Part shown: positions 7,544 through 40,876 of the stretch, piece by piece
Position numbering within the stretch: position 1 is the stretch's first letter
Layout of the letters: each line of letters opens with the position of its first letter
Source of the DNA: Candidatus Eiseniibacteriota bacterium
GTDB taxonomy: Bacteria; Eisenbacteria; RBG-16-71-46
Length of the DNA: 64,000 bases
NCBI GenBank assembly: GCA_963717935.1
Contig: CAVQXP010000004.1
Location: 896,001-960,000 of the forward strand
Direction: 5' to 3'
Program-made: the position numbers and the translations under genes
The notes under the pieces: generated by a model
What the model was told of the DNA's origin: nothing
Databases searched by the model: none
What the model saw: the letters and a program-made list of their open reading frames with translations, nothing else

Positions 7544-8182
7544 ATGCACCTGGCAGCCGCGTACCTCGCCCTCGTCCTCGCCTTCCTCCGTCCGCCGGCC
7601 GGGCCCGTGTCGGTCGCGCAGGTCGGCCCCGGCCTGCTGCTCAACGAGTTCCTCGCCGGACCGGCGCGCGACTGGGACGGCAGCGGCACCCTCTCGACCC
7701 GCGACGACGAATGGGTCGAGGTCTGCAACACGGGCCTCGCGGCGCTCGATCTCTCGCCCTTCCTCATCACCGACGGTGACCACCTGCCGCGCTACGCCTT
7801 CAGCGGCACGCTCGGGCCGGGCGAGCGGCGCCTGGTCTTCGGCAAGGAGTCCTACGACTGGGAGAAGGCCAACGGTTTCCCGGCCTACGGGCTCTCGCTC
7901 TCGAACACCGGTGACACCGTGATGCTCTGGCAGGTCGCGGGGGCCGAGACCGTGCTGGTGGACTCGTACACCTACCTGAGCCACGAGGCCGCGGCCGACC
8001 GCGCCGTGGCGCGCAAGCCGGACGGTGGAACCTGGATGCTCTTCGACGGGCTCAACCCCTATGTCGGCACCACGCCGCCGCTGGGCACGGGCTGCGCGCC
8101 CACGCCCGGACTGGCCAACGTCTGCGAGAACACGCCGGCGCAGGTCCCGACCTGGGGGAGGCTCAAGACCCTGTACCGGTGA
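7544..8182 (+). CDS. Secreted lamin-tail domain protein with C-terminal TWGRLKTLYR tail
   Basis: Signal peptide; LLLNEFLA...DEWVEVCN, LSNTGDTV motifs; ends CENTPAQVPTWGRLKTLYR. Confidence 0.75.
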   Translation: MHLAAAYLALVLAFLRPPAGPVSVAQVGPGLLLNEFLAGPARDWDGSGTLSTRDDEWVEVCNTGLAALDLSPFLITDGDHLPRYAFSGTLGPGERRLVFGKESYDWEKANGFPAYGLSLSNTGDTVMLWQVAGAETVLVDSYTYLSHEAAADRAVARKPDGGTWMLFDGLNPYVGTTPPLGTGCAPTPGLANVCENTPAQVPTWGRLKTLYR

Positions 8183-8395
8183 GACGGAGTGCCCCGCCCT
8201 CCTCGATTTCGCCGAGTCGTCCGCCTCCTCCGGCGCATCTGAAGCAGTCCCGGCGGGCCGCGTGCGCCAGCGCAGGAGACCCGCCGGGACTCTCTCGCGC
8301 CCTGCCCCGACCGCCCATTCGGCCTTGTCCGCGCCTGCGGGTCGAGGGCACACTGGTGCGGTGCCCGATTCACCTGGTTCCCGTGGAGGCGAACG

Positions 8396-9322
8396 CTGAA
8401 CCCCGACCCGGCTCAGGCCCGTGACCTGCTGGAGTCCCACCGCGCCGGCCGGCTGCTCTGGCCTGCGGGGCGCCTGCGCGAGAAGGCGCTCGAGATCCGC
8501 CGCGACCTCATCACCCTGCTCGTCCAGGCCCGGAGCGGGCACACCGGCGGGTCGCTCTCGGCCGCCGATTTCGGCACGGCCCTCTTCTTCCACGAGCTGA
8601 CCCTGGACCCGCGCGACCCGGCCTGGCCGGACCGCGACTTCTGGCACTTCTCGATCGGGCACGTGACCCCGCTGATCTACTCGCTCATGGCGGAGCGCGG
8701 CTATTTCCCGCTCGCGGACCTGATGCAGTTCCGCACCTTCGCCGGGCACCTGCAGGGCCACCCGTCGCGCCACGACACGATCGGCATCGAGGTCTCCTCG
8801 GGCTCGCTCGGCCAGGGGCTCTCGGTGTGCGCGGGCGTGGCGATGGCCGCGCGCATCGACCGGCACCCGCGGCGCGTCTACTGCGTCATGGGCGACGGCG
8901 AGCAGCAGGAGGGACAGGTCTGGGAGGCGGCGATGTTCGCGGGGCACCGCCGGCTCGACAACCTCTGCGCCGTCGTGGACTACAACCGCAAGCAGATCGA
9001 CGGCGACGTCGAGGACATCTGCGGGATCCTGCCGCTGGCCGACAAGTGGCGCGCCTTCCGCTGGAACGTGATCGAGGTGGAGGGGCACGATCTCGAACGG
9101 ATCCTCGGCGCCTTTGCCGCCGCGCGCACGTGCAGGGGCCAGCCCACCGTGATCCTCGCGCACACCGTGATGGGCAAGGGCGTGTCGTTCATGGAGGACG
9201 ATCACCGCTGGCACGGCAAGCCGCCCGGGCCCGCCGAGGGCGAGCAGGCGCTCGCGGAGCTGGGCAGCACGTTCGCCGAGTGGTCGGCGCGGCTGCTCGC
9301 GGGCCGGGGGGACGCACGATGA
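8396..9322 (+). CDS. Transketolase, N-terminal (TPP-binding) subunit; probable CTG start
   Basis: SGHTGGSLS upstream of the listed ORF and in frame; LQGHP, GSLGQGLS, GDGEQQEG..WEA; GGAGG 6 nt before in-frame CTG at 8396. Confidence 0.9.
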   Translation: MNPDPAQARDLLESHRAGRLLWPAGRLREKALEIRRDLITLLVQARSGHTGGSLSAADFGTALFFHELTLDPRDPAWPDRDFWHFSIGHVTPLIYSLMAERGYFPLADLMQFRTFAGHLQGHPSRHDTIGIEVSSGSLGQGLSVCAGVAMAARIDRHPRRVYCVMGDGEQQEGQVWEAAMFAGHRRLDNLCAVVDYNRKQIDGDVEDICGILPLADKWRAFRWNVIEVEGHDLERILGAFAAARTCRGQPTVILAHTVMGKGVSFMEDDHRWHGKPPGPAEGEQALAELGSTFAEWSARLLAGRGDAR

Positions 9323-10287
9323 CGGACATCACGCTGCCCGCGCAGGTCGAGAAGAGGAAGACCCGCGAGGGCTTCGGCCGCGCGCTGGTCGCGCTGGGGG
9401 AGCGGGACCCGCGCATCGTGGTGCTGGTGGGCGATCTCTCCGAGTCCACCATGGTGAGCTTTTTCGCCGAGCGCTTCCCCGAGCGCTTCATCCAGGTCGG
9501 GATCGCCGAGCAGAACATGACCGGCATCGCCGCCGGCCTGGCGGCCGCGGGCAAGGTCCCGTTCCTCGCCACCTACGGCGCCTTCGCCTCGTACCGCGCC
9601 GCGGACCAGCTGCGCGTGACGGTGGCGTACTCGGAGCTCAACGTGAAGATCGTCGGGGCGCATGGCGGCCTCTCGGTGGGCCTCGACGGCGCCACGCACC
9701 AGGCGCTCGAGGAGATCAGTATCATCCGCTCGATCCCCAACCTGACGCTGATCGTGCCGTGCGACTACTGGGAGGCGTACAAGGCCACCATCGCGGCCGC
9801 CGTGCACGCCGGCCCGGTCTACATCCGCCTCGGACGCGAGGACGTGCCGGTGGTGACCGCCGAGGACACGCCGTTCACGTTCGGCCAGGCGGAGGTCTTC
9901 GCCGCGGGCGGTGACCTCACCATCGTCGCCTGCGGTGTCATGGTCTACGAGGCGCTGCGCGCGCGCGAGGCCCTGCTCGAGCGCGGGATCGCCGCCCGGG
10001 TCGTGGACCTGCACACGCTCAAGCCGCTCGATGTCGCGCTGCTCGAGCGCTGCGCGCGGGAGACGGGGGCCATCGTCACGGCCGAGGAGCACCAGGTGAA
10101 CGGCGGCCTGGGCGGTGCCGTGGCCGAGGCCGTGGTCCGCACGCACCCGGTACCGATGGAGTTCGTGGCGGTGATGGACCGTTTCGGCCAGTCGGGCAGG
10201 CCCGACGAGCTGATGGAGGCCTTCGGGATCAAGTCGGCGGACATCGTCGCCGCGGCGGAGCGCGTGCTGGCCCGCAAGCGGGGCTGA
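9319..10287 (+). CDS. Transketolase, C-terminal subunit
   Basis: TREGFGRAL, GIAEQNM, DGATHQ, GPVYIRLGR, TAEEH motifs; ATGA overlap with the N-subunit. Confidence 0.92.
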   Translation: MTDITLPAQVEKRKTREGFGRALVALGERDPRIVVLVGDLSESTMVSFFAERFPERFIQVGIAEQNMTGIAAGLAAAGKVPFLATYGAFASYRAADQLRVTVAYSELNVKIVGAHGGLSVGLDGATHQALEEISIIRSIPNLTLIVPCDYWEAYKATIAAAVHAGPVYIRLGREDVPVVTAEDTPFTFGQAEVFAAGGDLTIVACGVMVYEALRAREALLERGIAARVVDLHTLKPLDVALLERCARETGAIVTAEEHQVNGGLGGAVAEAVVRTHPVPMEFVAVMDRFGQSGRPDELMEAFGIKSADIVAAAERVLARKRG

Positions 10288-10614
10288 GCCGGGCGAGGAG
10301 CGCCGCTGCCGCGCGTGGGGGGCGCGGGATCCCGGGTGTCTCCGCGGGTTCCCGCGCCTGCTCGATCCCCGGACCGTCACGGCGCCAACTCCAAACGGGA
10401 CAAGCTGTTCCGCGTGCAGCCCGATTCGGTGGCGCTCGCCCCCGGGCGGTGCTCCACGCGGGCAGGAGCACCGGGCCGCCTGGCGCCGACCGAATCCTGG
10501 TGACGCCCCTCCGCACCGGGCGCTACGATTCTCCCCGACAGACCAACGCCCTCCGTCCGGAGGCCGCCGCGACCAGGATGCGACGTCCGGAGGGGGCCAG
10601 CCTGGGAGGCCGCC

Positions 10615-12513
10615 ATGCGATCCGTTCCCCCGCCATCTTCCCCGTCCCTCCGTGCAGCGCTGATCCTCCTCGCCATGGTGAGCGTCGCCCTGCCCGCCCT
10701 CGGAGCGACGTGGACCGGGGGAGTCGACGTCCAGGTCAACCAGGATCCTCCCGTGCTCAATCAGAACGAGACGGCGCTGGCCCTCAACTGGAGTCTGCCG
10801 GGCAACCTGCTCATGGCCTACAACGACAACCCCTGGCCCGGCGGACCGGGGCTGGGCTACAGCTACAGCTTCGACAACGGGATGACCTGGACCGACGGGC
10901 ATCTCGCCCTTCCGCCCGGCATGGTCCAGTACCACGACCCGATGGCGGCCGCCGATCTCACGGGACGGTTCTACGCCGGTGGCTGCGCCAACGACAACGT
11001 CGTGAACGGCAACAGCGGCCTCTACGTCTACTCCTCGACGGACGGCGGGGCGACGTGGTCGGCGCCGGCCGTCGTGTCGTCCGACGGGCCCCAGCCGCTG
11101 CCCCAGCCCGCGACCCTCAACGACCGCGGGCACCTCGTGGTGGACACGCACGCCGCGAGCCCGTACGCGAATCACGTCCACCTGACCTGGATGAAGGACG
11201 TGGGCTCGACCGGTCCGTTCGGTGACACGTGGTTCAGCACCTCGCCTCCGGGCGGGACCTCGTTCAGCCCGCGGCTGCAGATCAGCGACCTCCCTTCCGG
11301 CACGTCGCGCAGCCACGCCCCCCACGTCGCGAGCGCCTCGGACGGGACCATCTACGTGGTGTGGGCCGACTACGACATCACGGTCTCCCAGAGCCCGGCC
11401 ACCTTCTGGCTCGACCGCTCCTACGACGGTGGCGCCAACTTCGGGCAGGACGTCCAGGTCCTCTCGGGGATCGCCACGGTGCCCCGGGTCTTCAGCTCCT
11501 TCCTCGGGCCCGACACGCAGGGGGACACGGCGCCCGTCATCGCCACGAATCCGCTCCAGCCGAACGAGGTCTACGTCGTCTACAACGCCGATCCGGATCC
11601 GGTGTTCACGGGTGACGAGGGCGACATCTTCTTCGTGAGGTCGCTGGACGGGGGGACCACCTGGAGCCTGCCCATCCCCGTCACCCAGCCCCCGTACAAC
11701 TCCGGCCCCCAGTACGCGCCCTGGATCGGCGTCAAGCCGAACGGCGTGATCGATGTCGCGTGGTACAGCGGCAATCTCGTCGATGGCCCCTATCCTCTCG
11801 ACTGGGGCGTGCTCATGAGCCAGAGCCGGGATGGCGGCACCACCTGGACCAGCCCCGCGCCGATCAGCGACGTGTGGACCCGCGCGCCGCGGAATCCCTT
11901 CGCCACCACCGGCTGGCTGGGCGAGTACCTCGCCCTGGTCGTGGACTCGACCTGGGCGTACGTCGGGTGGGCACAGGCGCGCGCCGATTCTCTCGGCGAC
12001 ATCTACTACGACCGTGTCAACAACATCGTGTTCGGGGACTGCGACGGGAACGGGATCCCCGACTACCAGGACCTCGCTGCCTGCGCGAGCGATCCGCGCT
12101 GCCTGGACTGCAACGGGAACCAGGTGCTGGACGGTTGTGACATCGACCCGGGCGATCCCGACGGCGACGGGTGCGTGAGCCTCGACGCCGACGGCGACCT
12201 GATCCCCGACGAATGCACCTCCTCGGGGGTCGGAGAGGGCGGCTCCGGGGGGATCGAGTTCCGCGCGCGGCCGAACCTTACGCGCGGTCCGGCGCGATTC
12301 CACTTCGGCACGGTGTTGCGGGCGGGCGGGACGGTGACGCTCTTCGATGCGACGGGTCGGATGGTGCGCGTCCTGGCCGTGGCGCCCGGGGCGGCGAGCG
12401 TCGCCTGGGACGGGACGAACGCAGGGGGCGAGATCGTCGCGGCGGGGACCTACTTCGCCAGGCTGGTCCACGAGGGCGGGAGCGCGAGGACGCGCCTCAT
12501 CGTGGCCCGCTGA
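10615..12513 (+). CDS. Secreted BNR/Asp-box (sialidase-like propeller) protein with Asp/Cys repeats and FlgD-Ig/CTD-like C-terminus
   Basis: Five S-x-D-[GN]-G-x-x-[WF] boxes; DCDGNGIPD, DCNGNQVLD, DADGDLIPDEC; tail TLFDATGRMVR...WDGTN...AAGTYFARL. Confidence 0.8.
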   Translation: MRSVPPPSSPSLRAALILLAMVSVALPALGATWTGGVDVQVNQDPPVLNQNETALALNWSLPGNLLMAYNDNPWPGGPGLGYSYSFDNGMTWTDGHLALPPGMVQYHDPMAAADLTGRFYAGGCANDNVVNGNSGLYVYSSTDGGATWSAPAVVSSDGPQPLPQPATLNDRGHLVVDTHAASPYANHVHLTWMKDVGSTGPFGDTWFSTSPPGGTSFSPRLQISDLPSGTSRSHAPHVASASDGTIYVVWADYDITVSQSPATFWLDRSYDGGANFGQDVQVLSGIATVPRVFSSFLGPDTQGDTAPVIATNPLQPNEVYVVYNADPDPVFTGDEGDIFFVRSLDGGTTWSLPIPVTQPPYNSGPQYAPWIGVKPNGVIDVAWYSGNLVDGPYPLDWGVLMSQSRDGGTTWTSPAPISDVWTRAPRNPFATTGWLGEYLALVVDSTWAYVGWAQARADSLGDIYYDRVNNIVFGDCDGNGIPDYQDLAACASDPRCLDCNGNQVLDGCDIDPGDPDGDGCVSLDADGDLIPDECTSSGVGEGGSGGIEFRARPNLTRGPARFHFGTVLRAGGTVTLFDATGRMVRVLAVAPGAASVAWDGTNAGGEIVAAGTYFARLVHEGGSARTRLIVAR

Positions 12514-12608
12514 GATGCGAGGGGGCCCGGGCGGAGTGGGCCGCCCGAAGACGGACGAAGCCGCCCCTCGCGGCCACCGGACGAGCGCCAACGCGGCCCC
12601 GGGCCGCG

Positions 12609-12638
12609 TTGACGCTCGGTGCCCCCGCGTCCTATAGT
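12609..12638 (+). promoter_or_regulatory. Sigma70-type promoter for the tRNA-Leu/smpB operon
   Basis: TTGACG-N18-TATAGT, 18 nt upstream of the tRNA. Confidence 0.7.
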
Positions 12639-12656
12639 GCGGCCCGCCGTTCACGT

Positions 12657-12743
12657 GCGGAAGTGGCGGAACTGGCAGACGCACTAGATTCAGGGTCTAG
12701 CGCCCGCAAGGGTGTGGGGGTTCAAATCCCCCCTTCCGCACCA
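12657..12743 (+). tRNA. tRNA-Leu(CAG)
   Basis: GCGGAAG/CTTCCGC acceptor stem, anticodon arm CTAGA-TTCAGGG-TCTAG, long variable arm, TTCAAAT, encoded CCA. Confidence 0.95.
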
Positions 12744-12837
12744 CGCTCCCATCCGTTGGATGGGCGCCTTCCCGCCATCCGGGCGAGTCAAGGCGGTCGT
12801 GCCCGTCCCACCGCCGGCCCCGCGGACGGTTCCTGCC

Positions 12838-13353
12838 ATGGCTCGTGAAGACTCCAGACCGACCTCCGAGCGGACCCGCGGGCCCTCGCCCGAGGATCGC
12901 CTCGTCGCCCAGAACCGCCGCGCCCACCACGACTACTTCATCCTCGAGACCTACGAAGCGGGCCTCGCACTGCGCGGCACCGAGGTGAAGAGCCTGCGCG
13001 CGGGCAAGGCCAGCCTGGCCGAAGCCTACGCCACGGTGGAGGGCAGCGAGGCCTGGGTGCTGCAGTTGCACATCCCGCCCTACGAGCAGGGCAACCGTGC
13101 GAACCCCGACCCGCTGCGCCGGCGCAAGCTCCTGCTGCACCGCGCCGAGATCGTGAAGCTCAAGGAGGCGGTGGCACGCAAGGGCCAGACGCTGGTGCCG
13201 CTCAAGCTCTACTTCGCTCGCGGCCACGCCAAGCTGCTGCTCGGCGTGGGCAAGGGCAAGAAGAACGTCGACAAGCGCCACGCGATCGCCGAGCGCGATG
13301 CGAAGCGCGAGATGGACCGCGCGCGGCGCGTTTCCCGGGAAGCGCGCGGGTGA
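12838..13353 (+). CDS. smpB: SsrA-binding protein
   Basis: NRRAHHDYFILETYEAGLALRGTEVKSLR, RKLLLH, GKGKK..DKR. Confidence 0.97.
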   Translation: MAREDSRPTSERTRGPSPEDRLVAQNRRAHHDYFILETYEAGLALRGTEVKSLRAGKASLAEAYATVEGSEAWVLQLHIPPYEQGNRANPDPLRRRKLLLHRAEIVKLKEAVARKGQTLVPLKLYFARGHAKLLLGVGKGKKNVDKRHAIAERDAKREMDRARRVSREARG

Positions 13354-14813
13354 GTCCGAGGCGCTGGATCGCGCGCGGGGCAGGCGTGGCGCTGCTCGCG
13401 CTGGCCGCGGGCTCCGGGTTCCGGGCGCCGTCTTCCGGCCTGGCCGCACCGGGGCCGCACCCGGCGTCCCCAATCGCGCTCCCGGCTACGCTCCCGGCCT
13501 TCGAGTCGGCGCCGGTGCTGCAGGTCGGGGGCGTGGCGTGCGTCGGGGCGAACGACCTCGCGCGGCTGCTCAAGGCGACCAAGTTCTGGCGTGCCGACGT
13601 GCGCAAGCTCGTGCTGCGCGCAGGCCCGCACCGGGTGACGCTCACGACGGACAACCCGTTCGCGGTCGTGGACGACCGCACCGTGTGGCTGCGCGCCCCG
13701 GTGGTCTCGCGGCGGGGCGAGTTGCAGGTGCCGGTCTCGCTGCTCGACTCGCTGCCCCGCGACAGCACGCTCGCGCGCCTGCTCTTCGAGCCGCGCCGTG
13801 GCGCCGTGGTCAGGGTGCCGCGCGGTGGCCTGGTGAGGAGCCCCGAGGTGACCGCCGACGACACGTTGACGCGCGTCGTCTTCCCGGTCGAGCGCGTGGC
13901 CGACGTCACCGTGGCGGGCCGGGCGCGCGGCCACTTCCGCGTGCGCCTTGCCGGGACGTTCGTGGGTGCGGCGCCCGAGTCGCTGCCACCCGCGAGCCTG
14001 GTGCGCGGGATCGCGCCGGTCGCGACGGCCAGGGGCAGCGTCTTCGAGCTGGAGGTGGCATCCGGCGCGGCGGGCTACCGGCTGGTGCGGGGCGGGGGCG
14101 CGGCGGACGCGGCGGCGGGGACGGTGGCGCTCGAATTCCCGCGCCTGTGGCGCGCGGGGCTCGAGGCGTTCGCGCTCGAGGCCCGGCCGTCGCGCGTGAG
14201 GGTGATCGTGCTCGACCCGGGCCACGGCGGGCCCGACGCGGGCGTGACCGCGGGGACCGACGTCGAGAAGGATCTCGCGCTCGCGCTCGCGCGGCTGGTG
14301 CGCACCGAACTCGGGCGCCGGCTCGGGGCCCAGGTCGTCCTGACGCGCGATGACGACCGCCCGCTCGCGCCGGAGCAGCGCGCCGAGATCGCGAACCGCG
14401 CGCGCGCCGACCTGGTGGTGTCGCTCCACTTCGACGCGGTGCCGGGCACGCAGCGCTCGGGCGCGACGGCCTGGTGCCCGCCCGCGAGGGTGGGAGCGCG
14501 TGAGGGCCCGCTCCTGCCGCGCGTGCCGCTCGTGCTGCTGCCGTGGCGCGAGGTCGCGCTCCGCCGGGCGGTGCTGAGCCGCGCGGCGGCCGAGGCGATC
14601 CTGGGCGCGTTGGACGCGTCCGGCGCGGGACCGGTACGGCTGCGCGAGCGGCTCATGGTCCCCCTGCTCGGCGTGGACGCGGCGGCCCTGATGCTCGATT
14701 GCGCGACGCTCGGCGCGATCCCCGACCGGATCCGCGTGGAGGACCCGCGCGGATTGCAGGAGCTGGCCGCCGCGATCGCCGAGGGCGTGGCGCGCTGGGC
14801 GAGAGGCGGATGA
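13350..14813 (+). CDS. N-acetylmuramoyl-L-alanine amidase family protein (Amidase_3)
   Basis: VIVLDPGHGG, EKDLAL, VLTR, RAEIAN, VSLH motifs; signal peptide. Confidence 0.85.
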   Translation: MSPRRWIARGAGVALLALAAGSGFRAPSSGLAAPGPHPASPIALPATLPAFESAPVLQVGGVACVGANDLARLLKATKFWRADVRKLVLRAGPHRVTLTTDNPFAVVDDRTVWLRAPVVSRRGELQVPVSLLDSLPRDSTLARLLFEPRRGAVVRVPRGGLVRSPEVTADDTLTRVVFPVERVADVTVAGRARGHFRVRLAGTFVGAAPESLPPASLVRGIAPVATARGSVFELEVASGAAGYRLVRGGGAADAAAGTVALEFPRLWRAGLEAFALEARPSRVRVIVLDPGHGGPDAGVTAGTDVEKDLALALARLVRTELGRRLGAQVVLTRDDDRPLAPEQRAEIANRARADLVVSLHFDAVPGTQRSGATAWCPPARVGAREGPLLPRVPLVLLPWREVALRRAVLSRAAAEAILGALDASGAGPVRLRERLMVPLLGVDAAALMLDCATLGAIPDRIRVEDPRGLQELAAAIAEGVARWARGG

Positions 14814-15403
14814 GGCGCGCACCCTCGAGCGAGCGTCCCGGGCGCCCGCGGCGCGGCGCGCGCGTGCTCGGGCTCGTCCTTGGCGGGCTCATTCTCGCTG
14901 TGCTAGCGTGGGCCGCGTGGCGCTGGAGCCTGCGCTCCGGCGAGGTGACGGTGGTGGATCCCGCGGCCGCGGACACCGCGGGCGCCGGCTTCCGGTCGGC
15001 GCGGCTCTGGTTCGTGGCGCGTACCGGTGACGCGCTGGTGAGCGAGCCGCGCGAGGTCATCGAGCAGACCGGCCTGCACGAGCGCGTGGCCGCGCTGCTG
15101 GACGAGCTCGTGCGCGGGCCGACGGGCGCGGGTCTGACGCTGCTGCCCGCGGGGACCTCGCTGCGGCATGTCTACCTGGACGACCGTGGGTTGCTCACGC
15201 TGGACCTGTCGGGCGCGTTCCGTTCCGGTTTCCGCGGCGGGGCGGGCGCCGAGGAGTTGGCGGTGGGCGCGTTGGTGCGCACGCTGGGCGACAACCTGCC
15301 CGAGGTGAGATGGGTGATGATCGTGTGCGAGGGCGCACCGCTCGCGAGCCTGGGCGGGCACCTGCCGCTCGACCGTCCGCTCGAGCTCGCGGACTGGCCA
15401 TGA
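14810..15403 (+). CDS. GerMN domain protein
   Basis: Single N-terminal TM helix; ELVRGP, LLPAGT, TLDLSG, LVRTL, SLGGH pattern. Confidence 0.75.
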   Translation: MRRAPSSERPGRPRRGARVLGLVLGGLILAVLAWAAWRWSLRSGEVTVVDPAAADTAGAGFRSARLWFVARTGDALVSEPREVIEQTGLHERVAALLDELVRGPTGAGLTLLPAGTSLRHVYLDDRGLLTLDLSGAFRSGFRGGAGAEELAVGALVRTLGDNLPEVRWVMIVCEGAPLASLGGHLPLDRPLELADWP

Positions 15404-15431
15404 GCGCTGGAACCGAACGGAGAGGAGCGGC

Positions 15432-16307: not shown

Positions 16308-16368
16308 ACCGCGGTGGGGCCCGTCCGGCCCGTGTCCGGCGGGTGCCCCCGCTCGAGAGGAGTCCTTC

Positions 16369-17142: not shown

Positions 17143-17190
17143 GCGGGCGCGCCGCGGGTGGGAGCGCCGTTCCACGCCCCGAGGGACCCC

Positions 17191-25870: not shown

Positions 25871-25873
25871 ACT

Positions 25874-28406: not shown

Positions 28407-28548
28407 TCCCGCGGCCGCAGCCGCGCGCCGGAGCCCTCCTTGCGGCCCGTCCGGTCCCCGCGGGCCCCGGGAGACCCCTCCGGGCGATGGCGAGGCCCTC
28501 CGAATCCTCTTGCGGCGGACAGGTTCGGGCGCTTAGTCTCGCGCGCTT

Positions 28549-29251: not shown

Positions 29252-29276
29252 CGACAGGTTCGGGGAGGCTCGCGGC

Positions 29277-29576: not shown

Positions 29577-29578
29577 GG

Positions 29579-30727: not shown

Positions 30728-30767
30728 GATCGAGCTCCCGTCCGATCAACGATACGGAGGTGTGACG

Positions 30768-32287: not shown

Positions 32288-33180
32288 CCGCCTGCAGGCG
32301 CTGATCCGCGCGAGTCGCGTGATGGTCGAGGGCCGCGCGGCGCGCGCCTCGCAGCGTCTGCGCGCGGGCGAGCGCGTGCTCGTCGAGTTGCCGGAGCCGC
32401 GCCGGGTCGCGCTCCTGCCCGAGGCGATCTCGCTCGCCATCGTGCACGAGGACGAGCATCTGCTGGTCGTGGACAAGCCGGCGGGACTCGTCGTCCACCC
32501 CGGCGCCGGGGTGGCGAGCGGCACGCTGGTCCACGCCCTGCTCCACCACGCGCCCGCGATCGCCGACGTGGGCGGCGCGGGCCGTCCGGGCATCGTCCAC
32601 CGGCTCGACAAGCAGACCTCGGGACTGATGGTGGTGGCGAAGAGCGCCGCGGCCTACCGGGCCCTGGTCGAGATGCTGCGCGCGCACACCGTGCGGCGGC
32701 GCTACCTGGCGATCGTCTGGGGCGTGCCGCGCACGGCGACCGGCACGATCGAGGGCGCGATCGGCCGCGACCCGCGGCAGCGCAAGCGCATGGCCGTGGT
32801 CGCGCGCGGGGGCAAGCCGGCGCGCACGCGCTGGCGCGTGCGCGAGCGGCTGGCCGGGGCCGCGCTGCTCGAGGTCGCGCTCGACACCGGGCGCACCCAC
32901 CAGATCCGCGTGCATCTCGCGCACCGCGGCCACCCGGTGGCGGGCGACCCGCTCTACGGCGGTCGCGGGAAGGTCCAGTTGAGCGGAACCGCGGGGGAGC
33001 GTAGTCTCCGTTCCGCCGTGCTCGAAGCACTGCCGCGCCAGGCCCTCCACGCGACGGAACTCGAGTTCGCGCACCCCGTCACGGGAGAGCTCATGCGCTT
33101 CACATCGTCCCCGCCGGAAGACTTCGAACGCGCGTTGGAGACGCCTGCGCCCGTCCGCCGCGGCCCGGACGCACTGAGTC
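32196..33180 (+). CDS. RluA/RluD-family pseudouridine synthase
   Basis: S4-like N-terminus, VDKPAGLVVHP, HRLDKQTSG, TGRTHQIRVH, GDPLY, QALHA; end approximate because the frame runs into the next gene. Confidence 0.92.
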
Positions 33181-33185
33181 CCGAC

Positions 33186-33626
33186 ATGTCCGACGACACC
33201 CCCATCCCCGAAGTCGTCAGCCTGCGCATCCCGAGCCGGCTCGAACTGCTGAGTCTGCTCGATCGCGTGAGCACGCTGCTCTGCGAGCGCGCGGGTTTCG
33301 GCGAGGATGCCTGCACGCAGGTCACGCTGTCGGTGATCGAGGCGGGCACCAACGCCATCCAGCACGGCTCCGGGCGCGACCCCGCCAAGCCCGTGGACGT
33401 GGTCTTCTCCGTCCACCCCGACCGCATCGAGGTGAGCGTGCGCGACCAGGGCCCCGGCTTCGACCTCGACGAGGTGAGCGGCGACATCACCCAGCCGGAA
33501 CGCCTGCTCGACGCGCGCGGGCGGGGCATCTTCATCATGCGCGCCTGCATGGACTCGGTGGATTTCGCGTTCGACGGGTCCGGCACCACCTGCCGCCTCG
33601 TGAAGCGCCACCCCTCCGGGGGTTGA
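33186..33626 (+). CDS. RsbW-like anti-sigma factor / ATP-binding kinase (HATPase_c_2)
   Basis: EAGTNAIQHG, VRDQGPGFD, GRGIFIMRACMD. Confidence 0.85.
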   Translation: MSDDTPIPEVVSLRIPSRLELLSLLDRVSTLLCERAGFGEDACTQVTLSVIEAGTNAIQHGSGRDPAKPVDVVFSVHPDRIEVSVRDQGPGFDLDEVSGDITQPERLLDARGRGIFIMRACMDSVDFAFDGSGTTCRLVKRHPSGG

Positions 33627-33635
33627 CGCCGCACC

Positions 33636-34073
33636 ATGCGCGTGCTGGCGGTGGACTGGGGTGAGCGCCGGATCGGCCTCGCCGTGAGCGACCCGCAGGA
33701 GGTGATCGCCAGCGGACTGAAGACCCTGGTCGTGCGGAGCGCGGCCCACGGGGTGGAGGATGTGATCCGGGTCGCGCGCGAGGTCGAGGCCGAGCGCGTG
33801 GTGGTGGGGCTGCCGCTGCTCATGGACGGCAGGCGCGGGACGGCCGCCGAGGCGGCTCAGCGGTTCGCCGACCTGGTGCGCGAGCAGGGCGGGCTGCCGG
33901 TCGAGACCTACGACGAGCGCCTCACCTCGGCCCTCAGCGAGCGCCGGCTGCACGAGGCCGGCGTGCGCACCGGCCACGCCAAGGAGCGCGTGGACCAGGG
34001 CGCGGCGGTGGCGTTGCTGGAGTCGTACCTGATGCACCTGGGCGCACGGCGCGCGCGGGGGGAGGAGCCGTGA
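33636..34073 (+). CDS. yqgF: YqgF/RuvX pre-16S rRNA nuclease
   Basis: LAVDWGERRIGLAVSD, VVGLP, DERLTS, VDQGAA. Confidence 0.93.
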   Translation: MRVLAVDWGERRIGLAVSDPQEVIASGLKTLVVRSAAHGVEDVIRVAREVEAERVVVGLPLLMDGRRGTAAEAAQRFADLVREQGGLPVETYDERLTSALSERRLHEAGVRTGHAKERVDQGAAVALLESYLMHLGARRARGEEP

Positions 34074-35225
34074 ACGGCCGGGGGCGGTCCCGCCTGCCGC
34101 GCCCGCGGCCGCGGATCTTCCGGCCGCGGCGCTGGGCCCTGCTGCTGGTGCTGGCCGGAGCGCTGGCGGTGGCCGCCGACCTGTTCTTCCCGGCGGGCCT
34201 GTTCCCGCCGCCCGGACGCCGCGCCATCCTGGTCGAGCGCGGCCAGACGCTGGGCCAGGTCGCCGGGGAGCTCAAGCGCGTGGGGCTGCTGCGCGGCACG
34301 GCTCGGCTTCCAGGTGCTGGCGCGGTTCATGCGGCTCGATCGCCACATCCGGGCCGGGCAGTACGAGTTCGCGCTTGGCACATCGGTGCCCGGGCTGCTG
34401 CGCGCGCTGGCGTCGGGCATGAGCGCGCTGAACCTCCTGACCGTCCCCGAGGGCCTCACGCTGCTCGAGACCGGCGTGCTGCTCTCGCATCATCTGGGCG
34501 TGCCCATCGCGGTGTTCGATTCGCTGGGGCACGACCGCGCGTTCTGCGATTCGGCGGGGGTGAAGGCACCCTCGCTCGAAGGCTACCTGGGGCCCGACAC
34601 CTACTCGTTCCTGCCGGGCACGCCGCCCGAGGTGGCGCTGCGCGCCATGATCGCGCGGCAGAAGGAGGTGCTGCGCCGTGCCGCGGCCGGGCGCGACTCG
34701 CTGCCGCTCGGTCTGTCGCTCCAGCAACTGCTCATCCTCGCCTCGATCGTCGAATCCGAGGCGCAGCGGCCCGCCGAGCGCGCGCGCATCGCGCGTGTCT
34801 ACCTCAACCGGCTGGCCTGCGGCATGAGGCTGCAGGCCGACCCGACCGTGGCCTACGGCCTGGGCATGGGCCCGCGCTCGCGGCTGTTCCTCAAGTACCT
34901 GCGCAGCAACTCGCCCTACAACACTTACCTTTACGCGGGGCTGCCTCCCGGGCCCATCTGCAGTCCGGGCGCGGCGTCCATCGAGGCGGCGCTGAACCCC
35001 GTGCCGCCCGAGCCCTCGCTCTACTTCGTGGCGCGCGGGGACGGCAGCCACCTGTTCGCGCGCAGCTACGAGGAGCACCTCGGGAACATCCGCCGCGCCC
35101 GCTTCCTGCAGGCGAGCGCGGCCGCGACCGCCGAGTCGCTGCGCGCGCTGGACTCGCTGGAGGCGCAGCCGGCGGCGCCCGGCGGGAGCCCGGCCCGGCG
35201 CGAGCAGGGGGCCCGGCGCGAGTAA
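34070..35225 (+). CDS. mltG: Endolytic transglycosylase MltG, frameshift near 34305
   Basis: AGQY, TVPEG, LEGYLGPDTY, LASIVESE, LQADPTV, SPYNTY..GLPPGPI, LYFVA. Confidence 0.92.
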
Positions 35226-35417
35226 GGGGCCCGGCGTGGTCCCGCCCGGGCTGCATTTTGCACGGTGCGCCGTGGGAAACCGAGCCGTCCGCCCGCCCGA
35301 TGGGCGCCTGCCTGCCGGTCCCCGGGCGGTCCCCGGCCCCCCGGCCCGTTCAGACGGAGCCGGGGTCCGGGCTCCTCTCCTTAGCCGCCACGGGGACGTG
35401 TGCTAACGTCCCATCCC

Positions 35418-36305
35418 ATGGCGACTTCCCCTGTGATCCCGCCCGCCGGTCCCGCGCCGGTCCCGCCCGCCCGCCCGCTCGACGGTCTCTCCTGGTCCGA
35501 GCGGCTCGAGCGCCTGCGTGATCTGCTGCGCGGCCTCGGCAGCGTGGTCGTGGCCTATTCGGGCGGCGTGGACTCGAGCCTGCTGCTGCGCGTGGCGCAC
35601 GAGGCGCTCCCGGGGCGCGCGCTGGGCGTGATCGGGCGCTCCGACTCCTACGCGGCCCGCGAGCTGGAGCTGGCCCGCGCCCAGGCGGCCTCCTTCGGGG
35701 CGCGGCTCGAGGTGGTGACGACCGGCGAGCTGGCCGACCCGGTCTTCCGCTCGAATCCGGCCGAGCGCTGTTATCACTGCAAGAGCGAGCTTTATCGGCA
35801 ACTGGACGGGGTGGCGCGCCGAATGGGCGCGGTGGTCGTGGACGGCACCATCGCGGACGACCTGGCGGACTGGCGGCCGGGCCGGCGCGCGGCGCAGGAG
35901 CGCGGCGTGCGCTCGCCGCTCGCCGAGCTGGGCTTCGGCAAGGCCGACGTGCGCGCGGCGGCGGCCCACTACGGCCTGGCGAGCGCGGGCAAGCCGGCCT
36001 CGCCCTGCCTGGCTTCGCGGATCCCGTACGGGACCGAGATCACCCGGGAGAGCCTGGCCATGGTCGAGCAGGCGGAGGCGCTGCTGCGCTCGCTGGGCTT
36101 CGGCGAGCTGCGCGTGAGGCACCACGGCGACACGGCCCGCATCGAGGTGCCACTCACCGACCTGGCGCGTTTCGGCGAGCCGGGCGTGCGCGAGCGGGTG
36201 GTCGAGGGGCTCAAGGCGTTGGGGTATCGCTACATCGCGCTGGACCTCGAGGGCTTCCGCTCGGGCAGCCTGAACCAGGTCCTGGGGTCGGACGTCCCCG
36301 GCTGA
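35418..36305 (+). CDS. larE: LarE-like ATP-dependent sulfur transferase (PP-loop)
   Basis: AYSGGVDS, RCYHCK, DWRPG, PCLASRIPYG, RVRHHG, GFRSGSLN. Confidence 0.9.
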   Translation: MATSPVIPPAGPAPVPPARPLDGLSWSERLERLRDLLRGLGSVVVAYSGGVDSSLLLRVAHEALPGRALGVIGRSDSYAARELELARAQAASFGARLEVVTTGELADPVFRSNPAERCYHCKSELYRQLDGVARRMGAVVVDGTIADDLADWRPGRRAAQERGVRSPLAELGFGKADVRAAAAHYGLASAGKPASPCLASRIPYGTEITRESLAMVEQAEALLRSLGFGELRVRHHGDTARIEVPLTDLARFGEPGVRERVVEGLKALGYRYIALDLEGFRSGSLNQVLGSDVPG

Positions 36306-36572
36306 GGGCTCCCGGAGCGTGCCCCGGGAGCAGGGGCTCCCGGACCGTTTGCGTCCCCCGTCAAAAGGTTGAGAATATCCGGAACCGTCGCCCCCTGTGG
36401 CTGGGTACTACCCGATGCGCCCCACAGAGGCGGCGGCACGAAAATGCGGTCTTCGCTGGGACCGTCGGTGCCCTGGGCCTCCCTCTGGCCTTCAAACGCC
36501 GATGATCTCGGTCCGGCCGCCCGGTCCGAAGCGTCGGCATTCGTGTTTTCCGCCCGCAGGAGGAGGTAGGGG

Positions 36573-36818
36573 ATGAGCGCAGTGAAGCCAGGCCGCCAGA
36601 GAGCACAACGGCGGGCCCTGGAAGCCGATCTGGGGTTCAGCTGGGGGCTGGCGAACAGCGTCCTGCTGGCTCTGGGGGTGGGGGTTCTGGCCGTGGGTTA
36701 TGTGACCCTTTCACGGGGTTCCATCACCCTGGCCCCGGTCCTGCTGGTGCTGGGCTACTGCGTCCTCATCCCCGTATCCCTCCTGTTTCGTGGGCGAAAG
36801 GCAGGTTCGGGCGAATAG
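36573..36818 (+). CDS. Small two-TM membrane protein (DUF3098-like)
   Basis: Strong GGAGG SD; two hydrophobic helices with ITLAPVLLVLGY. Confidence 0.65.
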   Translation: MSAVKPGRQRAQRRALEADLGFSWGLANSVLLALGVGVLAVGYVTLSRGSITLAPVLLVLGYCVLIPVSLLFRGRKAGSGE

Positions 36819-36884
36819 CTCAGTTGGCAGAGCACTTGCCTTACAAGCAAGAGGTCACAGGTTCGAGCCCTGTTTCGCCCACCA
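36809..36884 (+). tRNA. tRNA-Val(TAC)
   Basis: GGGCGAA/TTCGCCC acceptor stem, CTTGC-CTTACAA-GCAAG, encoded CCA. Confidence 0.95.
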
Positions 36885-36995
36885 GTGGGGTGCTGAGGTC
36901 ACGGGAAGCACCGGCCGGGCTGGCCCCGAGGGGCCAGAAACCCCGGAGACGGCAGGAAAACCGCAGAGACCGGCAGTTCGAGGGCCAAAAGAGTC

Positions 36996-37025
36996 TTGAC
37001 AGTGCGATGGCAAGGCCGATAAACT
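36996..37025 (+). promoter_or_regulatory. Strong sigma70-type promoter for the surface-protein cluster
   Basis: TTGACA-N18-TAAACT. Confidence 0.7.
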
Positions 37026-37196
37026 TACCAGCGGCATCAAACGCCTTGCTAACGCGGCAGATAACATCGCCTGGAGACTCGAACTCGCACTCTCGATGAG
37101 TTCGAAAGGAGGTGGCATCAAGGTAGACCTGCTTGCTCGCAACTGAGCCTTGCTCGATCTCAGCAACAGGGTGACCCATCTACTGGAGGTGCAACA

Positions 37197-37859
37197 ATGA
37201 CTGGTGTTGTTCGCAAGGCCACCTTCCTTGCAGTACTTGGTCTCGCAGCGACGATGTCCGTCGCCATGGCCGGTGTCCCCTCTCCGGCCAACTGTACGCT
37301 TCCCACGTCCATCCAGATCGGCGGCTGCGACGCCCTCGACACGATCGATCCGACCATCTCCTTCAGCGTGACGATCCGCGACATCAGCAACTACCCCGTC
37401 GTCAATCAGCCGGTCGCGTGCCAGTTCAACAGCGACGTCAGGATCTACGACGGCGAGTTCGCCGGGTTCGTCTCCTGCCAGTGCGTCGAGGCCATCACGG
37501 ACATCAACGGCGTGGCGGTCTTCCACGTCGCGGGCGGCGGCAAGAACACGATCGGCGGGGCGGCCTACACGGGCGGCCTGGCGGCGACGTTCTATGGCTG
37601 GAACTGCGGCAACACGCTCGTCCTCGGCCAGGCCAACGTGAACGTGTACGACGAGAACGGTGGAGTCACCACCAAGGGCGTCGACATCACGGACCTGAGC
37701 GCCTGGAGCTCGGATTACAAGCTGCGCGCCACCCCGCCGGTCAAGTATCGCTCCGATTTCAACATGAGCGGTCTCGTGGACATCGTGGACCTGTCCTTCT
37801 GGGCCACGGTCTACAAGACTCAGTTGTCGAGGTACACCTGCGGCTCGCTCTGCCCGTAG
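37197..37859 (+). CDS. Secreted Cys-rich protein with Ig-like region and C-terminal dockerin-like duplicated motif
   Basis: Signal peptide; DENGG..VDITDLSAW and SDFNMSGLVDIVDLSFW repeats; GGAGG SD. Confidence 0.7.
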   Translation: MTGVVRKATFLAVLGLAATMSVAMAGVPSPANCTLPTSIQIGGCDALDTIDPTISFSVTIRDISNYPVVNQPVACQFNSDVRIYDGEFAGFVSCQCVEAITDINGVAVFHVAGGGKNTIGGAAYTGGLAATFYGWNCGNTLVLGQANVNVYDENGGVTTKGVDITDLSAWSSDYKLRATPPVKYRSDFNMSGLVDIVDLSFWATVYKTQLSRYTCGSLCP

Positions 37860-37984
37860 TCGTACACAGGCAGTACGTGCTCGCGGAAAGAAAGGCGGTG
37901 ATGCGCGAGAAGAGAGGTTCGGGTGCCTGACATCTCCAGCAAGTAGTTCGCCTGACCCCCCTACAGCGGTTTCGGAGGCTGCAA

Positions 37985-38713
37985 ATGAAGAAGACGCTTC
38001 TCTTTACGGGTCTGTTGCTGGCGCTGACGGTTTCGGTTGCGCTGGCCGGTGGCGTGAACCTCAACTGGGGCAATTACTGCTACACCGACATGCCCACGCC
38101 CACCACGTACTTCGCCTGCACCGTGAACACTTCCGTCGGCAATCGCGTCATGACCGTCTCCTGGATGCTCGACGAGCCGATGGCGGATCTGGTCGCGATG
38201 GAGTGGCTGATCGAGGGTCAGTCCGACGCTGACGTCCTCCCGGAATGGTGGCAGCTCGGTTCCGCCCTGACGGACTGCCGTTCGGGCAAGGCCACGTTCT
38301 TCTCGGACCGCACCCTGTGGGAAGGGTCCTGCCTGGATTGGTCCATGGGCGCGGCCTACAACGTGGGCGACTACACCTGGGACACGAACCGTGCCCACAT
38401 CGCCCTGGGTTACGCAGTCGCTGCTGATGGCCAGTACCTCGCGGTGCCGGGCCAGGAGTACTACGGCGGTGGCGTGAACATCCTCAACAGCAAGACGGTC
38501 GGTACGCCCAGCTGCGCGGGCTGCTCGATCGGCATGATCTTCGGGCTGCACACCCTCACGGCTGCCGGCCTTGACGGTCGCCGGGACGATTTCTTCGAGG
38601 CGCTTCCCGGTGGCAACCAGTGCCTGATCTGGAACAGCTCGGTTCAGGAGTGTCTGGAGCCGGTGCCCGCGCGCAACACGACGTGGGGCCAGGTCAAGAG
38701 CCTGTACCGGTAG
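37985..38713 (+). CDS. Secreted Cys-rich protein, TWG-tail family paralog A
   Basis: MKK signal peptide; ends CLEPVPARNTTWGQVKSLYR. Confidence 0.85.
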   Translation: MKKTLLFTGLLLALTVSVALAGGVNLNWGNYCYTDMPTPTTYFACTVNTSVGNRVMTVSWMLDEPMADLVAMEWLIEGQSDADVLPEWWQLGSALTDCRSGKATFFSDRTLWEGSCLDWSMGAAYNVGDYTWDTNRAHIALGYAVAADGQYLAVPGQEYYGGGVNILNSKTVGTPSCAGCSIGMIFGLHTLTAAGLDGRRDDFFEALPGGNQCLIWNSSVQECLEPVPARNTTWGQVKSLYR

Positions 38714-38734
38714 TTTCTGGAAGTCGTTGCCTCC

Positions 38735-38764
38735 ACGGGCGGTCGTCGCAAGACGACCGCCCGT
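38735..38764 (+). terminator. 3' hairpin of paralog A
   Basis: Perfect stem ACGGGCGGTCGTC-GCAA-GACGACCGCCCGT. Confidence 0.6.
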
Positions 38765-39263
38765 CGGCTTGGGCGGGCAACGGCTGTCCCCGGGGACGCG
38801 CCGGGCTGGCCGCCCCCGCGGTGCCCGCCGCACGGCGGCTGCCCGTCCTGCCGGGCGCCCCTCCCCGGTGCTCCGGTCCCGGGCGCATCCCCCGTCGCAC
38901 CCTCCGGCCTCGCGAGGCACCCGCCTGCGGACGCTGAATTCCTGCTGGACGGGGGGGGCGGCTGCCGCTAACCTGCCGGCGTGCAGGTCTCGGGCCCGGG
39001 CTTGGTCACCCGGCCGCGACGCGACGCCTGGATGCGTCTGCCGCGATGCTTCGTGCGGAGGCGTCCCGCCGGATCGCGCCTGCGTGAGGGTCCGAGGCGA
39101 GGACGATGACGTCGCCACCGGGAGCGGGGCGTCTCGGCCCGGTTCGCAAGAGCCCTCGAGGAAGCAAGGGAAGAAAGGCGGTGATGCAAGGGTCCAGAAG
39201 GAGCTGGTCGCTCACCATCGGTGGCGCGTAGTTTTCCGTCCACCCCCGACACGGAGGTTGTTG

Positions 39264-39989
39264 ATGAAGAAGATGATTCTCCTTACGAGCATGCTGCTGG
39301 CGCTGACGGTCTCGGCCGCGCTGGCGGGTGGCGTGAACCTCAACTGGGGCAATTACTGCTACACGGACGATCCCGTGGCCGCGACGGTCTTCGCCTGCGA
39401 CGTGAACACTTCCATCGGCAATCGCGTCATGACCGTCTCCTGGATGCTCGACGCTTCGATGGCGGACCTGGTCGCGATCGAGTGGCTGATCGAGGGCCAG
39501 TCCGACGCTGACGTCCTCCCGGAATGGTGGCAGCTCGGTGACGCCGTCACGGACTGCCGTTCGGGCAAGGCCACGTTCTTCTCGGACCGCACCCTGTACG
39601 AGGGGGCTTGCCTGGATTGGTCCATGGGCGCGGCCTACAACGTGGGCGACTACACCTGGGACACGAACAAGACCCACCTCGCCCTGGGTTACGCGGTCGC
39701 CGCCGATGGCCAGTACCTCGCGGTGCCGGGCCAGGAGTACTTCGGCGGTGGCGTGAACATCCTCAACAGCAAGACGGTCGGCACACCCAGCTGCGCGGGC
39801 TGCTCGATCGGCATGATCTTCGGGCTGCACACCCTCACGGTCGCCGCCCTTGACGGTCGCCGGGACGATTTCTTCGAGGCGCTTCCCGGTGGCAACCAGT
39901 GCCTGAGCTGGAACAATACGACCACGGATTGTTCCACTGTCCCGGTGCGCGGCACGACCTGGGGGCAGATCAAGAGCCTCTACCGGTAG
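39264..39989 (+). CDS. Secreted Cys-rich protein, TWG-tail family paralog B
   Basis: GGAGG SD, MKK signal peptide, near-duplicate of paralog A; ends CSTVPVRGTTWGQIKSLYR. Confidence 0.85.
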   Translation: MKKMILLTSMLLALTVSAALAGGVNLNWGNYCYTDDPVAATVFACDVNTSIGNRVMTVSWMLDASMADLVAIEWLIEGQSDADVLPEWWQLGDAVTDCRSGKATFFSDRTLYEGACLDWSMGAAYNVGDYTWDTNKTHLALGYAVAADGQYLAVPGQEYFGGGVNILNSKTVGTPSCAGCSIGMIFGLHTLTVAALDGRRDDFFEALPGGNQCLSWNNTTTDCSTVPVRGTTWGQIKSLYR

Positions 39990-40012
39990 TCCCGGCAGAC
40001 GGTCTGCAGATT

Positions 40013-40048
40013 CCCGCGGGCGGTCGTCCCAGGACGGCCGCCCGCGGG
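40013..40048 (+). terminator. 3' hairpin of paralog B
   Basis: CCCGCGGGCGGTCGTCC..GGACGGCCGCCCGCGGG, homologous to the hairpin at 38735. Confidence 0.55.
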
Positions 40049-40117
40049 CTTGGCGCCGCCGCGCTTCCGGGCCGCCGCCCTTCGCCACCGCGGTCTTCCC
40101 TGTGATAGCCTTGCATC

Positions 40118-40876
40118 ATGTCCGCACGCAGGCGGGTCTTCCTCATCGTGCTGGTCGTCTGTGGCTGCTCGTCCGCGGTTCCGGCGCGGGCGACGGAGGG
40201 CCTCTTCCTGACCTGGGTCGACTGCGCGCTGGCTCCCGGCTCGCCCCACGACCTCTCCTCGTCGTGCCTGAGCAACCTGGGTTCGCAGGATCTCTTCTGT
40301 GCCTTCCGGATGCCGTTTCCCACCGACAGCGTGCTCGGCGTAGAGATCGTGGTGGACGTGCAGCATGCGAACGCGACCCTGCCGGACTGGTGGAGGTTCG
40401 ACAACGTCGGGTGCCGCGCGGGGGAGCTGCGAGCGGGGACCGACTTTCCGGCGGCCTCGCCGTGCGTGGACTTCTTCCAGGACGAGGCGTTCAGCGACCT
40501 GCAGGGCTACTACCTCACCGAGCCGAACGGCGAATCCAACCAGGCCAGCATCCGCGTGGCCGCCTCGCTGCTGCCGAGCGCGGGCTACGTGCAACTCGAC
40601 TCGAGCAGCATGTACCTGGGGGTTCGCCTGAACATCTCCAACGCCCTTACCGTCGGCGTGACACCCTGCGGCGGCTGTCTCGACCCCGCCTGCCTCGTGC
40701 TCAACTCGGTCCTCGTGAGGCGGCAACCCGGGGCCGAGGGCGGCGACGTGTTCCTGAGCGTCCCGGGCCCGGATGACGCCAACTGGGCGACCTGGCAGGG
40801 TGGGATGGGCGCCAACTGCGCCGCCGTGCCGGTAAGGCCCGTGACCTGGGGCCGGCTGAAGGAGCTCTACCGATGA
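40118..40876 (+). CDS. Secreted Cys-rich protein, TWG-tail family paralog C (divergent)
   Basis: GLFLTWVDC, LPDWWRF, GCR, CGGC align with paralogs A/B; ends CAAVPVRPVTWGRLKELYR. Confidence 0.8.
   Translation: MSARRRVFLIVLVVCGCSSAVPARATEGLFLTWVDCALAPGSPHDLSSSCLSNLGSQDLFCAFRMPFPTDSVLGVEIVVDVQHANATLPDWWRFDNVGCRAGELRAGTDFPAASPCVDFFQDEAFSDLQGYYLTEPNGESNQASIRVAASLLPSAGYVQLDSSSMYLGVRLNISNALTVGVTPCGGCLDPACLVLNSVLVRRQPGAEGGDVFLSVPGPDDANWATWQGGMGANCAAVPVRPVTWGRLKELYR

Follow-up and report, generated by a model that had tools for sequence, protein, structure and literature searches.

A strictly C-terminal TWG tail on secreted proteins of Candidatus Eiseniibacteriota and an NTF2-fold lipoprotein as its candidate reader

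Which component of the cell envelope reads a short C-terminal tail shared by unrelated secreted proteins? The question is raised by a 64-kb stretch of DNA from a Candidatus Eiseniibacteriota bacterium (assembly GCA_963717935.1, contig CAVQXP010000004.1, positions 896,001 to 960,000; this whole stretch is called the window here), in which four genes encode signal-peptide proteins ending in a common TWG tail. A sequence-only reading of the window had taken the tail for a dedicated export, cleavage or attachment signal. Our analysis bears out a portable, strictly C-terminal module, and the evidence points to a docking helix rather than to an established export or cleavage signal. We regard it as probable that, as modelled, the tail would cross the inner membrane with its cargo and bind a groove of an NTF2-fold lipoprotein, B; that B would also be part of an export route through a barrel encoded in the same operon is the reading of the full route that we favour, although we hold it tentatively. 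What is new is the link between the orphan tail and the operon encoding the barrel, lipoprotein A and lipoprotein B. Full-text searches of the literature, with subscription journals and supplements outside their scope, found nothing on either. Bare positions below are window positions, and G000 denotes the genome that holds the window (3.0 Mb, 93% complete).

The TWG tail is a strictly C-terminal, portable module

The tail has the approximate consensus [PAG]-[TVS]-[PAS]-[VTA]-[ER]-x-[TS]-[TS]-W-G-x-[LIV]-K-x-x-[YF]-R. Within the window, the carriers and their tails are as follows.

7544..8182, + strand: secreted lamin-tail-domain protein, 212 amino acids, TWG tail at its end (PF00932, E 2.4e-7, 31.5 bits, just below the cut-off of 34.3)
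8132..8182, + strand: TWG tail 1 (final 16 codons and stop), pattern match
37985..38713, + strand: secreted Cys-rich protein of an unnamed family, 242 amino acids, TWG tail at its end; largest group of tail carriers (48 of 131 bodies)
38663..38713, + strand: TWG tail 2, pattern match
39264..39989, + strand: recent paralogue of the 37985-38713 protein (85% identical), 241 amino acids, with TWG tail
39939..39989, + strand: TWG tail 3, pattern match
40118..40876, + strand: distant member (23%) of the 37985-38713 family, 252 amino acids, with TWG tail
40826..40876, + strand: TWG tail 4, used as the peptide in the co-fold with NTF2 lipoprotein B (interface, residues 17-32 of the 32-residue partner)
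40873..41781, + strand: fourth family member without TWG tail, Pro/Ala-rich end (profile A6, E 1.2e-19, profile positions 23-225 of 238)

All four genes, with their tail ends, were found where the sequence-only reading had placed them, on the + strand. The lamin-tail protein is indeed unrelated to the other three, as had been claimed; since these three neighbours belong to a single family (the second and third being 85% and 23% identical to the first), the window contains two families and not four. The tail is separable from the domain that carries it, since the 40873-41781 product belongs to the same family and has no tail; a tail-less relative of this protein lies at the equivalent place in locus L001.

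When [TS]WGxxKxx[YFW] was scanned over the whole genome (39,863 six-frame stop-to-stop open reading frames, 5.49 million residues), all 14 matches started exactly 10 residues before the stop, a strictness far beyond chance. One of the 14 is an out-of-frame 3' piece of a lamin-tail gene. A profile built on these tails recovered one further end at 24.9 bits, the next best reaching at most 9.5, and looser searches, this one included, added in all an SFGG variant and two lipoproteins, bringing the genome to 17 tail-like ends. Across the phylum, a DNA pattern of tail plus stop was present in 190 of 201 genomes; it matched about 4,190 times and the reversed control twice, and genomes of family f7 had merely 0 to 5 strict tails each. 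The 11 genomes without a strict tail initially suggested a tail-free lineage that could serve as a contrast within the phylum. Under a looser pattern, five of them gave either many TW[S/T] variants (two genomes) or one to two true tails or candidates (three g44 genomes), so that no tail-free lineage is established.

A 32-position profile of 15 tails retrieved 787 clusters at 50% identity. In 147 of the best 150, the motif lies at most 12 residues from the end, and, partly by construction of the search, W, G and K are present in 150 and Y in 149 of these 150. The bodies that carry the tail, taken from the best 150 clusters and from the genome itself (131 of at least 60 residues), fall into 56 similarity groups. 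Recognised carrier domains include lamin-tail, NHL propeller, PPC, beta-helix, DUF7450 and DUF7451, the majority of carriers having no family; at L062:9794-10351, an LTD protein retains its tail in a genome nearly free of other tails. By a crude signal-peptide test, 67 of 77 apparently complete tail proteins (152 to 381 residues long) passed. In the genome holding the window, where tail proteins measure about 170 to 310 amino acids, 13 of 15 passed compared to 438 of 1,903 called genes, the test being laxer for tail proteins (any start codon). A codon-bias proxy based on six reference genes gave no sign of high expression.

The requirement for a stop codon was then relaxed. Among 121 distinct metagenome matches, 108 ended within 12 residues, 3 within 19, 7 were internal and 3 ran off the contig. 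At 30 loci picked for the missing usual stop (32 matches), 31 matches still ended within 23 residues and one ran into the next gene. As matches without the usual stop still end nearby, extension appears to be tolerated, consistent with a docking helix. On these searches, the conditions named as refuting the sequence-only reading (a motif that is internal or on cytoplasmic proteins, a restriction to one or two families genome-wide, or a pathway already assigned) do not apply. The profile scan that the sequence-only reading had proposed found strict C-terminal position, common signal peptides and diverse carrier domains, and the claim of a portable module, strictly terminal on many unrelated secreted families, is upheld. 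Its picture of an amphipathic helix holds in part. On a helix, W, +3 and +7 fall on one side (0, 300 and 340 degrees), while +6 is at 240 degrees and the amphipathicity is modest, with a mean moment of 0.49 versus 0.40 in shuffles.

A conserved operon encodes a wide barrel and two NTF2-fold lipoproteins

The only lipoproteins among the 17 tail-like ends of the genome are two NTF2 B proteins. One of them is encoded about 800 kb from the tails of the window, in the gene order barrel, lipoprotein A, paralogue B.

G000:C4:1738804-1740948, outside the window: barrel gene, 714 amino acids (basis, structure model with 28 strands)
G000:C4:1737382-1738128, minus strand, outside the window: NTF2-fold lipoprotein B, with a TWG-like end

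The barrel was found in 179 of 201 genomes of the phylum, including 115 of 121 good ones, mostly as a single copy. Selection by the barrel only gave 19 loci, and in every one of them A lies 3' of the barrel and B lies 3' of A (one locus is cut at the contig end). Together with 11 loci found via NTF2 matches, this gives 30 barrel loci, in all of which A directly follows the barrel and precedes between one and four B genes. The 30 stretches fetched were in many cases only 5.5 kb long, and 15 of them encode secD downstream on the same strand; it is not there in the genome holding the window.

No sequence match to the barrel was found in Pfam, NCBIfam or PDB. Its model has 28 strands and no plug (predicted local distance difference test [pLDDT], 87), and residues 43-104 form a series of short, similar helices, absent from most other families. 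The nearest fold is MtrB (PDB 6r2q; Z 17.8, root mean square deviation 10.2, 491 aligned, 8% identity; Foldseek TM 0.43), and fold searches gave no clear relative past generic wide barrels. The operon resembles MtrB-MtrA and LptD-LptE in pairing a very wide barrel with lipoprotein partners encoded next to it. In contrast to MtrB-MtrA, there is no adjacent multihaem cytochrome, no CxxCH was seen in the alignments, and what follows the barrel in 30 of 30 loci is NTF2 lipoproteins. In contrast to LptD-LptE, there is no LptD sequence match, residues 43-104 are modelled as helices and not as an N-terminal beta-jellyroll, and the partners are not LptE. The 28 predicted strands further set the barrel apart from both complexes.

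A and B are paralogues (99.4%). The motif [TS][WFYLIVM]G is found within the last 28 residues of A in 24 of 30 loci, a few residues past the last strand, against a background of 7%. Among 28 first operon B genes (a truncated locus and a poorly delimited one were excluded), 21 stop right past the last strand and are tail-less; the other 7 have a TWG-like helix, which in 6 is borne on a long linker. Extra B paralogues, of which there are 1 to 7 per genome outside the operon, carry a TWG-like helix in 13 of 18 cases, often a cargo-like one. On a tree built from the domain only (54 rows), the tail label changes 8 times, at least 6 of these changes being forced by well-supported branches, versus 15.2 in shuffles. 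A 438-codon frame in loci L041 and L046 (G036:C24:19662-20774, - strand) contains a pair of NTF2 B domains with a TWG helix behind each, so that the first helix is internal. As to the range outside the phylum, homologue searches yielded hardly any taxon names; in the Atlas, lipoprotein B leads to a Krumholzibacteriota cluster (0.97). Mutual-information covariation within family A (139 rows, 47 effective) gave conservation artefacts only.

The tail is predicted to dock in a groove of lipoprotein B

B has an NTF2 fold (Z 14.4, root mean square deviation 1.9, 120 residues aligned to 3rob), and all 50 listed structural matches are NTF2-like. In its AlphaFold2 model, B's own tail is placed with a pLDDT of 87 to 93 past a linker near 50, with a strand bridge. 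Since the C-terminal parts of several solved NTF2 chains superpose on B out to model residues 241-248, the own tail of B would lie on its domain.

We co-folded B residues 36-203, from which the own tail was removed, with the last 32 residues of the window protein encoded at 40118-40876. The score was 0.85 (0.83, 0.89 and 0.85), the best of three controls reaching 0.02; this mark is attained by 116 of the 157 solved and by 2 of the 215 mismatched pairs. The runs share at least 95% of contacts, the partner has a pLDDT of at least 62, and only its residues 17-32, which are the conserved tail, touch B. In the model, Trp contacts V147, L149, I161, A165 and D197, Gly contacts F75 and F77, Lys contacts E97 and I100, and Tyr contacts I100-L104. 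Among the 21 tail-less B proteins, E/D at 97, D/E at 197, L/I at 149 and V/L/I at 161 are each found in 21, and F/Y at 75 is found in 20. The groove positions are more conserved than other positions (2.36 versus 0.96, p 0.004). We know of no solved complex of an NTF2 domain with such a tail. The arrangement recalls donor-strand complementation in chaperone-usher and type V pili, in which a terminal segment likewise completes the vacant groove of another protein, but here the donor is a helix, the acceptor is an NTF2 domain, the donors have many unrelated folds, and no polymer is implied. The sequence-only reading had proposed co-folding the tail with the C25 peptidase and barrels; as far as the modelling goes, which covered B only, the evidence points to the NTF2 lipoprotein as reader and not to C25 peptidase or PorV barrels.

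Genes around the tail cluster of the window

The proteins encoded at 37985, 39264 and 40118 gave no Pfam or credible NCBIfam match, and their family gave no PDB sequence match. Cohesin is the only Atlas lead for this family, and a weak one (0.84, 16% of members). Immediately 5' of the cluster, a secreted 220-amino-acid protein without Pfam match (37197-37859, + strand) ends in two dockerin-like D-x-x-D-L-S repeats, and the same gene also precedes the tail cluster in L001. Given the weak cohesin lead, this protein and the tail family may form a cohesin-dockerin pair. Just upstream of the 37197-41781 cluster, at about 36810-36885 (+ strand), a tRNA-like sequence with a TAC anticodon was spotted by eye.

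A possible export route and points that weigh against it

In the route that we favour, the signal peptide would take the cargo across the inner membrane, as its sequence suggests, and the cargo tail would then enter the modelled groove of B as a donor helix. B would act in a putative complex with A and the plug-less 28-strand barrel, all three being encoded in the observed operon, and the TWG-like segment built into A could be a latch or a place-holder. In what is the weakest step, the barrel would let small folded cargo out to the cell surface, alongside the type IX route for large cargo. More speculatively, since the residues ahead of the helix are PorU-site-like, a C25 sortase may then trim the cargo and attach it to the surface. 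The tail may even define an undescribed secretion system, in which the TWG helix of A is the latch of the barrel and a 10-residue cargo helix replaces it by helix exchange, for tens of small folded proteins per genome; this is a conjecture that we hold somewhat more loosely than the route itself. We are just as guarded about its extension to FCB-related uncultured phyla, where a 28-strand barrel gated by two NTF2 lipoproteins would operate in parallel to type IX secretion.

Several observations weigh against this route. The tie between cargo and barrel rests on gene order and size only. Some tail proteins elsewhere have 400 to 690 amino acids by our own gene calls, and there may be a bias towards short proteins in the profile search. 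Since tail and operon are near-universal in the phylum, their co-occurrence cannot discriminate; the operon is kept in family f7, where there are only 0 to 5 tails, and may have another main job. The genome also encodes SprA, PorU (above cut-off), three PorV/PorQ barrels and a PorZ-like protein (below its cut-off). As to docking, the alignments used here were outside the calibration of the co-fold, so that its counts of solved and mismatched pairs are rough ones for them. Close cousins of the true partners also pass the co-fold, and a pass may therefore reflect kinship with the own helix of A or B. The groove is not more conserved than other hydrophobic positions (2.13 versus 2.02, p 0.43), and, according to the model, the groove of the genome's B holds a resident tail that cargo would need to displace. 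Exact [TS]WG is found in A in only 12 of 30 loci (e.g., TWGKLK and TWGNLK; background, 23 of 2,150), and when A was compared with the tail by profile, the match was weak (probability 14%, E 0.002).

The tail might instead be a tether only, holding cargo on B at the outer membrane, on the periplasmic face or, if B is exposed, on the surface, while the barrel serves lipoproteins or another substrate. The B model, the co-fold and the conservation of the groove fit a tether equally well, and both the expansion of B paralogues outside the operon and the persistence of the operon where tails are few speak for it. However, the strict barrel-A-B order and a plug-less 28-strand pore that needs an occupant are not accounted for, few anchors would have to serve dozens of competing cargo families per genome, and the lamin-tail, NHL propeller and beta-helix families of the cargo are typical of surface proteins. 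We thus consider a mere tether unlikely, though credible.

The tail is distinct from the type IX C-terminal domain

As the sequence-only reading had held, the tail is not a type IX C-terminal domain. Its conserved part of about 16 residues has no Ig-like sandwich and no three-strand sheet of at least 40 residues, and the genome's own profile of type IX C-terminal domains gave no match on tail proteins. The tail shares several features with the type IX type A domain (TIGR04183/PF18962; read by PorV/SprA and cut by PorU). Both are portable C-terminal signals on unrelated secreted proteins of the same genomes, both tolerate a short extension, and each follows a flexible linker, in which a [TS]-small-[VI]-like motif may be shared. 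They differ in that the domain is a beta-sheet of 40 to 108 residues while the tail is a helix of about 16, and the modelled reader of the tail is an NTF2 lipoprotein rather than PorV; tail carriers are also small, whereas the 51 called genes with a type IX C-terminal domain in the genome have a median of 672 amino acids.

The tail could nevertheless be a minimal type IX signal that replaces the Ig-like domain, its carriers passing SprA and being cut by PorU at a PT/[small]V-like site, with the NTF2 lipoproteins as adaptor or further cargo. The outer-membrane parts are present in the genome (SprA, PorU, the PorV/PorQ family and a PorZ-like protein), FlgD-type cargo was found in 51 of 51 genomes, and tail genes often adjoin type IX cargo genes. 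Positions -8 to -4 of the tail favour P/A-T/V-P/A/S-V/T-E and resemble the PT/GI cleavage consensus given for Prevotella intermedia in the accessible part of PMC11969387. Two tests of a shared linker disagree: a post-hoc motif occurred in 16 of 62 cargo linkers versus 6.5 in shuffles, whereas a profile of tail positions -7 to -4 did no better on cargo linkers than on shuffles (3.12 versus 3.31). Moreover, 43 of 108 tails have Pro at the putative +1 site, and Pro is not among the tolerated +1 residues named in the accessible part of PMC11969387; known type IX signals require a beta-sheet that binds PorV, according to the parts of PMC11285876 and PMC11969387 that are accessible. No tail was found together with, or ahead of, a type IX domain on one protein, either in the genome or in the 32 extended matches, and f7 genomes retain 43 to 87 type IX cargos alongside 0 to 5 tails. 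A minimal type IX signal is therefore doubtful in our view.

The type IX genes themselves showed several features of their own. SprA is split over two reading frames at G000:C4:1330227-1333287 (L053), and a lamin-tail gene (L005:6820-7706) and a TonB receptor gene (L052:5079-7870) of the assembly are frameshifted as well; all these frameshifts are probably sequencing errors. GldN and GldM, the two motor genes searched for, were not found in five of five genomes, in a search in which no positive control gave a signal; judged by gene content, the type IX system here may run without the Bacteroidota motor. A PorP/SprF-type adaptor was dropped as a part of the tail route, being present in one of five genomes only. 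Three C25 peptidases are encoded, in the window (50024-54310, + strand), at G000:C4:1844709 and at G000:C4:1688337, and of these only the copy next to PorV exceeds the cut-off for PorU. The one in the window scores 204 of 420 bits and continues for about 25 extra residues past its FlgD domain. Two unnamed small barrel-like genes lie 3' of the PorU-PorV operon (L050:15363-17086). Modules of a TonB-dependent receptor, a PorV/PorQ-family barrel and type IX-type cargo occur twice (L051:9811-16397 and L052:5079-13613), and at G000:C2:237930-247865 (L002) a 170-amino-acid tail protein resembling a lone cohesin is surrounded by four type IX cargo genes, of which three match cohesin domains weakly.

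Other ligands of the groove and other sorting signals

The natural ligand of the groove could also be the helix of A, in an A-B dimer, or the tethered helix of B, the cargo tail sharing their ancestry and being read by another protein. The two paralogues are always adjacent, the equivalents of E97 and D197 are conserved in A as well (28 of 30 and 29 of 30), and the close cousins that pass the co-fold would be explained. On the other hand, the cargo tail keeps the modelled contact residues more strictly than the helix of A does, and canonical cargo-type tails have been fused to B paralogues repeatedly, which makes this alternative improbable to us.

Signals that are likewise short, extremely C-terminal, present in many copies per genome and borne by signal-peptide proteins include PEP-CTERM (PF07589), IPTL-CTERM (PF18203), LPXTG, GlyGly-CTERM and MYXO-CTERM, and the TWG tail also shares with tripartite signals a [VT]P opening and a basic end. 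It differs from them in having neither a transmembrane helix nor an Arg cluster, and no orphan sortase was found. In all 15 tails, no 17-residue stretch of the final 35 residues exceeds a hydropathy of 1.31, which agrees with the earlier view that the tail is not LPxTG-, PEP-CTERM- or GlyGly-CTERM-like. The accessible part of 10.1101/2023.06.07.544157 defines tripartite sorting signals by a transmembrane helix, and neither TWG nor Eisenbacteria occurs in that part. There is no Pfam or NCBIfam entry for the tail; PF07589, PF18203 and NCBIfam gave no match at E <= 1 on the four full window proteins, and the best PF18203 match in the whole genome (E 0.87) is not at any tail. That the tail is a truncated PEP-CTERM or IPTL-CTERM signal processed by the genome's exosortase is highly improbable, since, for all that [VT]P-x(4)-[TS]WG resembles the start of IPTL-CTERM with its WG motif, that an IPTL-CTERM cluster is a weak Atlas neighbour of the tail (0.78), and that exosortase was found in five of five genomes of the phylum, the tails have no membrane helix and the single exosortase A-like gene of this genome belongs to a polysaccharide locus, with a canonical PEP-CTERM substrate of its own (C4:585406).

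Significance

The proposed docking of the TWG tail on lipoprotein B would pair an orphan signal on thousands of proteins with an orphan, single-copy, phylum-wide machine of the envelope. The question of the reader is thereby turned into a three-gene system with named contact residues, which can be approached with a synthetic peptide and a 19-kDa domain and without culturing. If true, the pairing would assign a location to a large unannotated share of the secreted proteome. If export through the barrel is true as well, this outer-membrane secretion route would be of a new kind, would use a signal among the shortest known and would be of interest for surface display.

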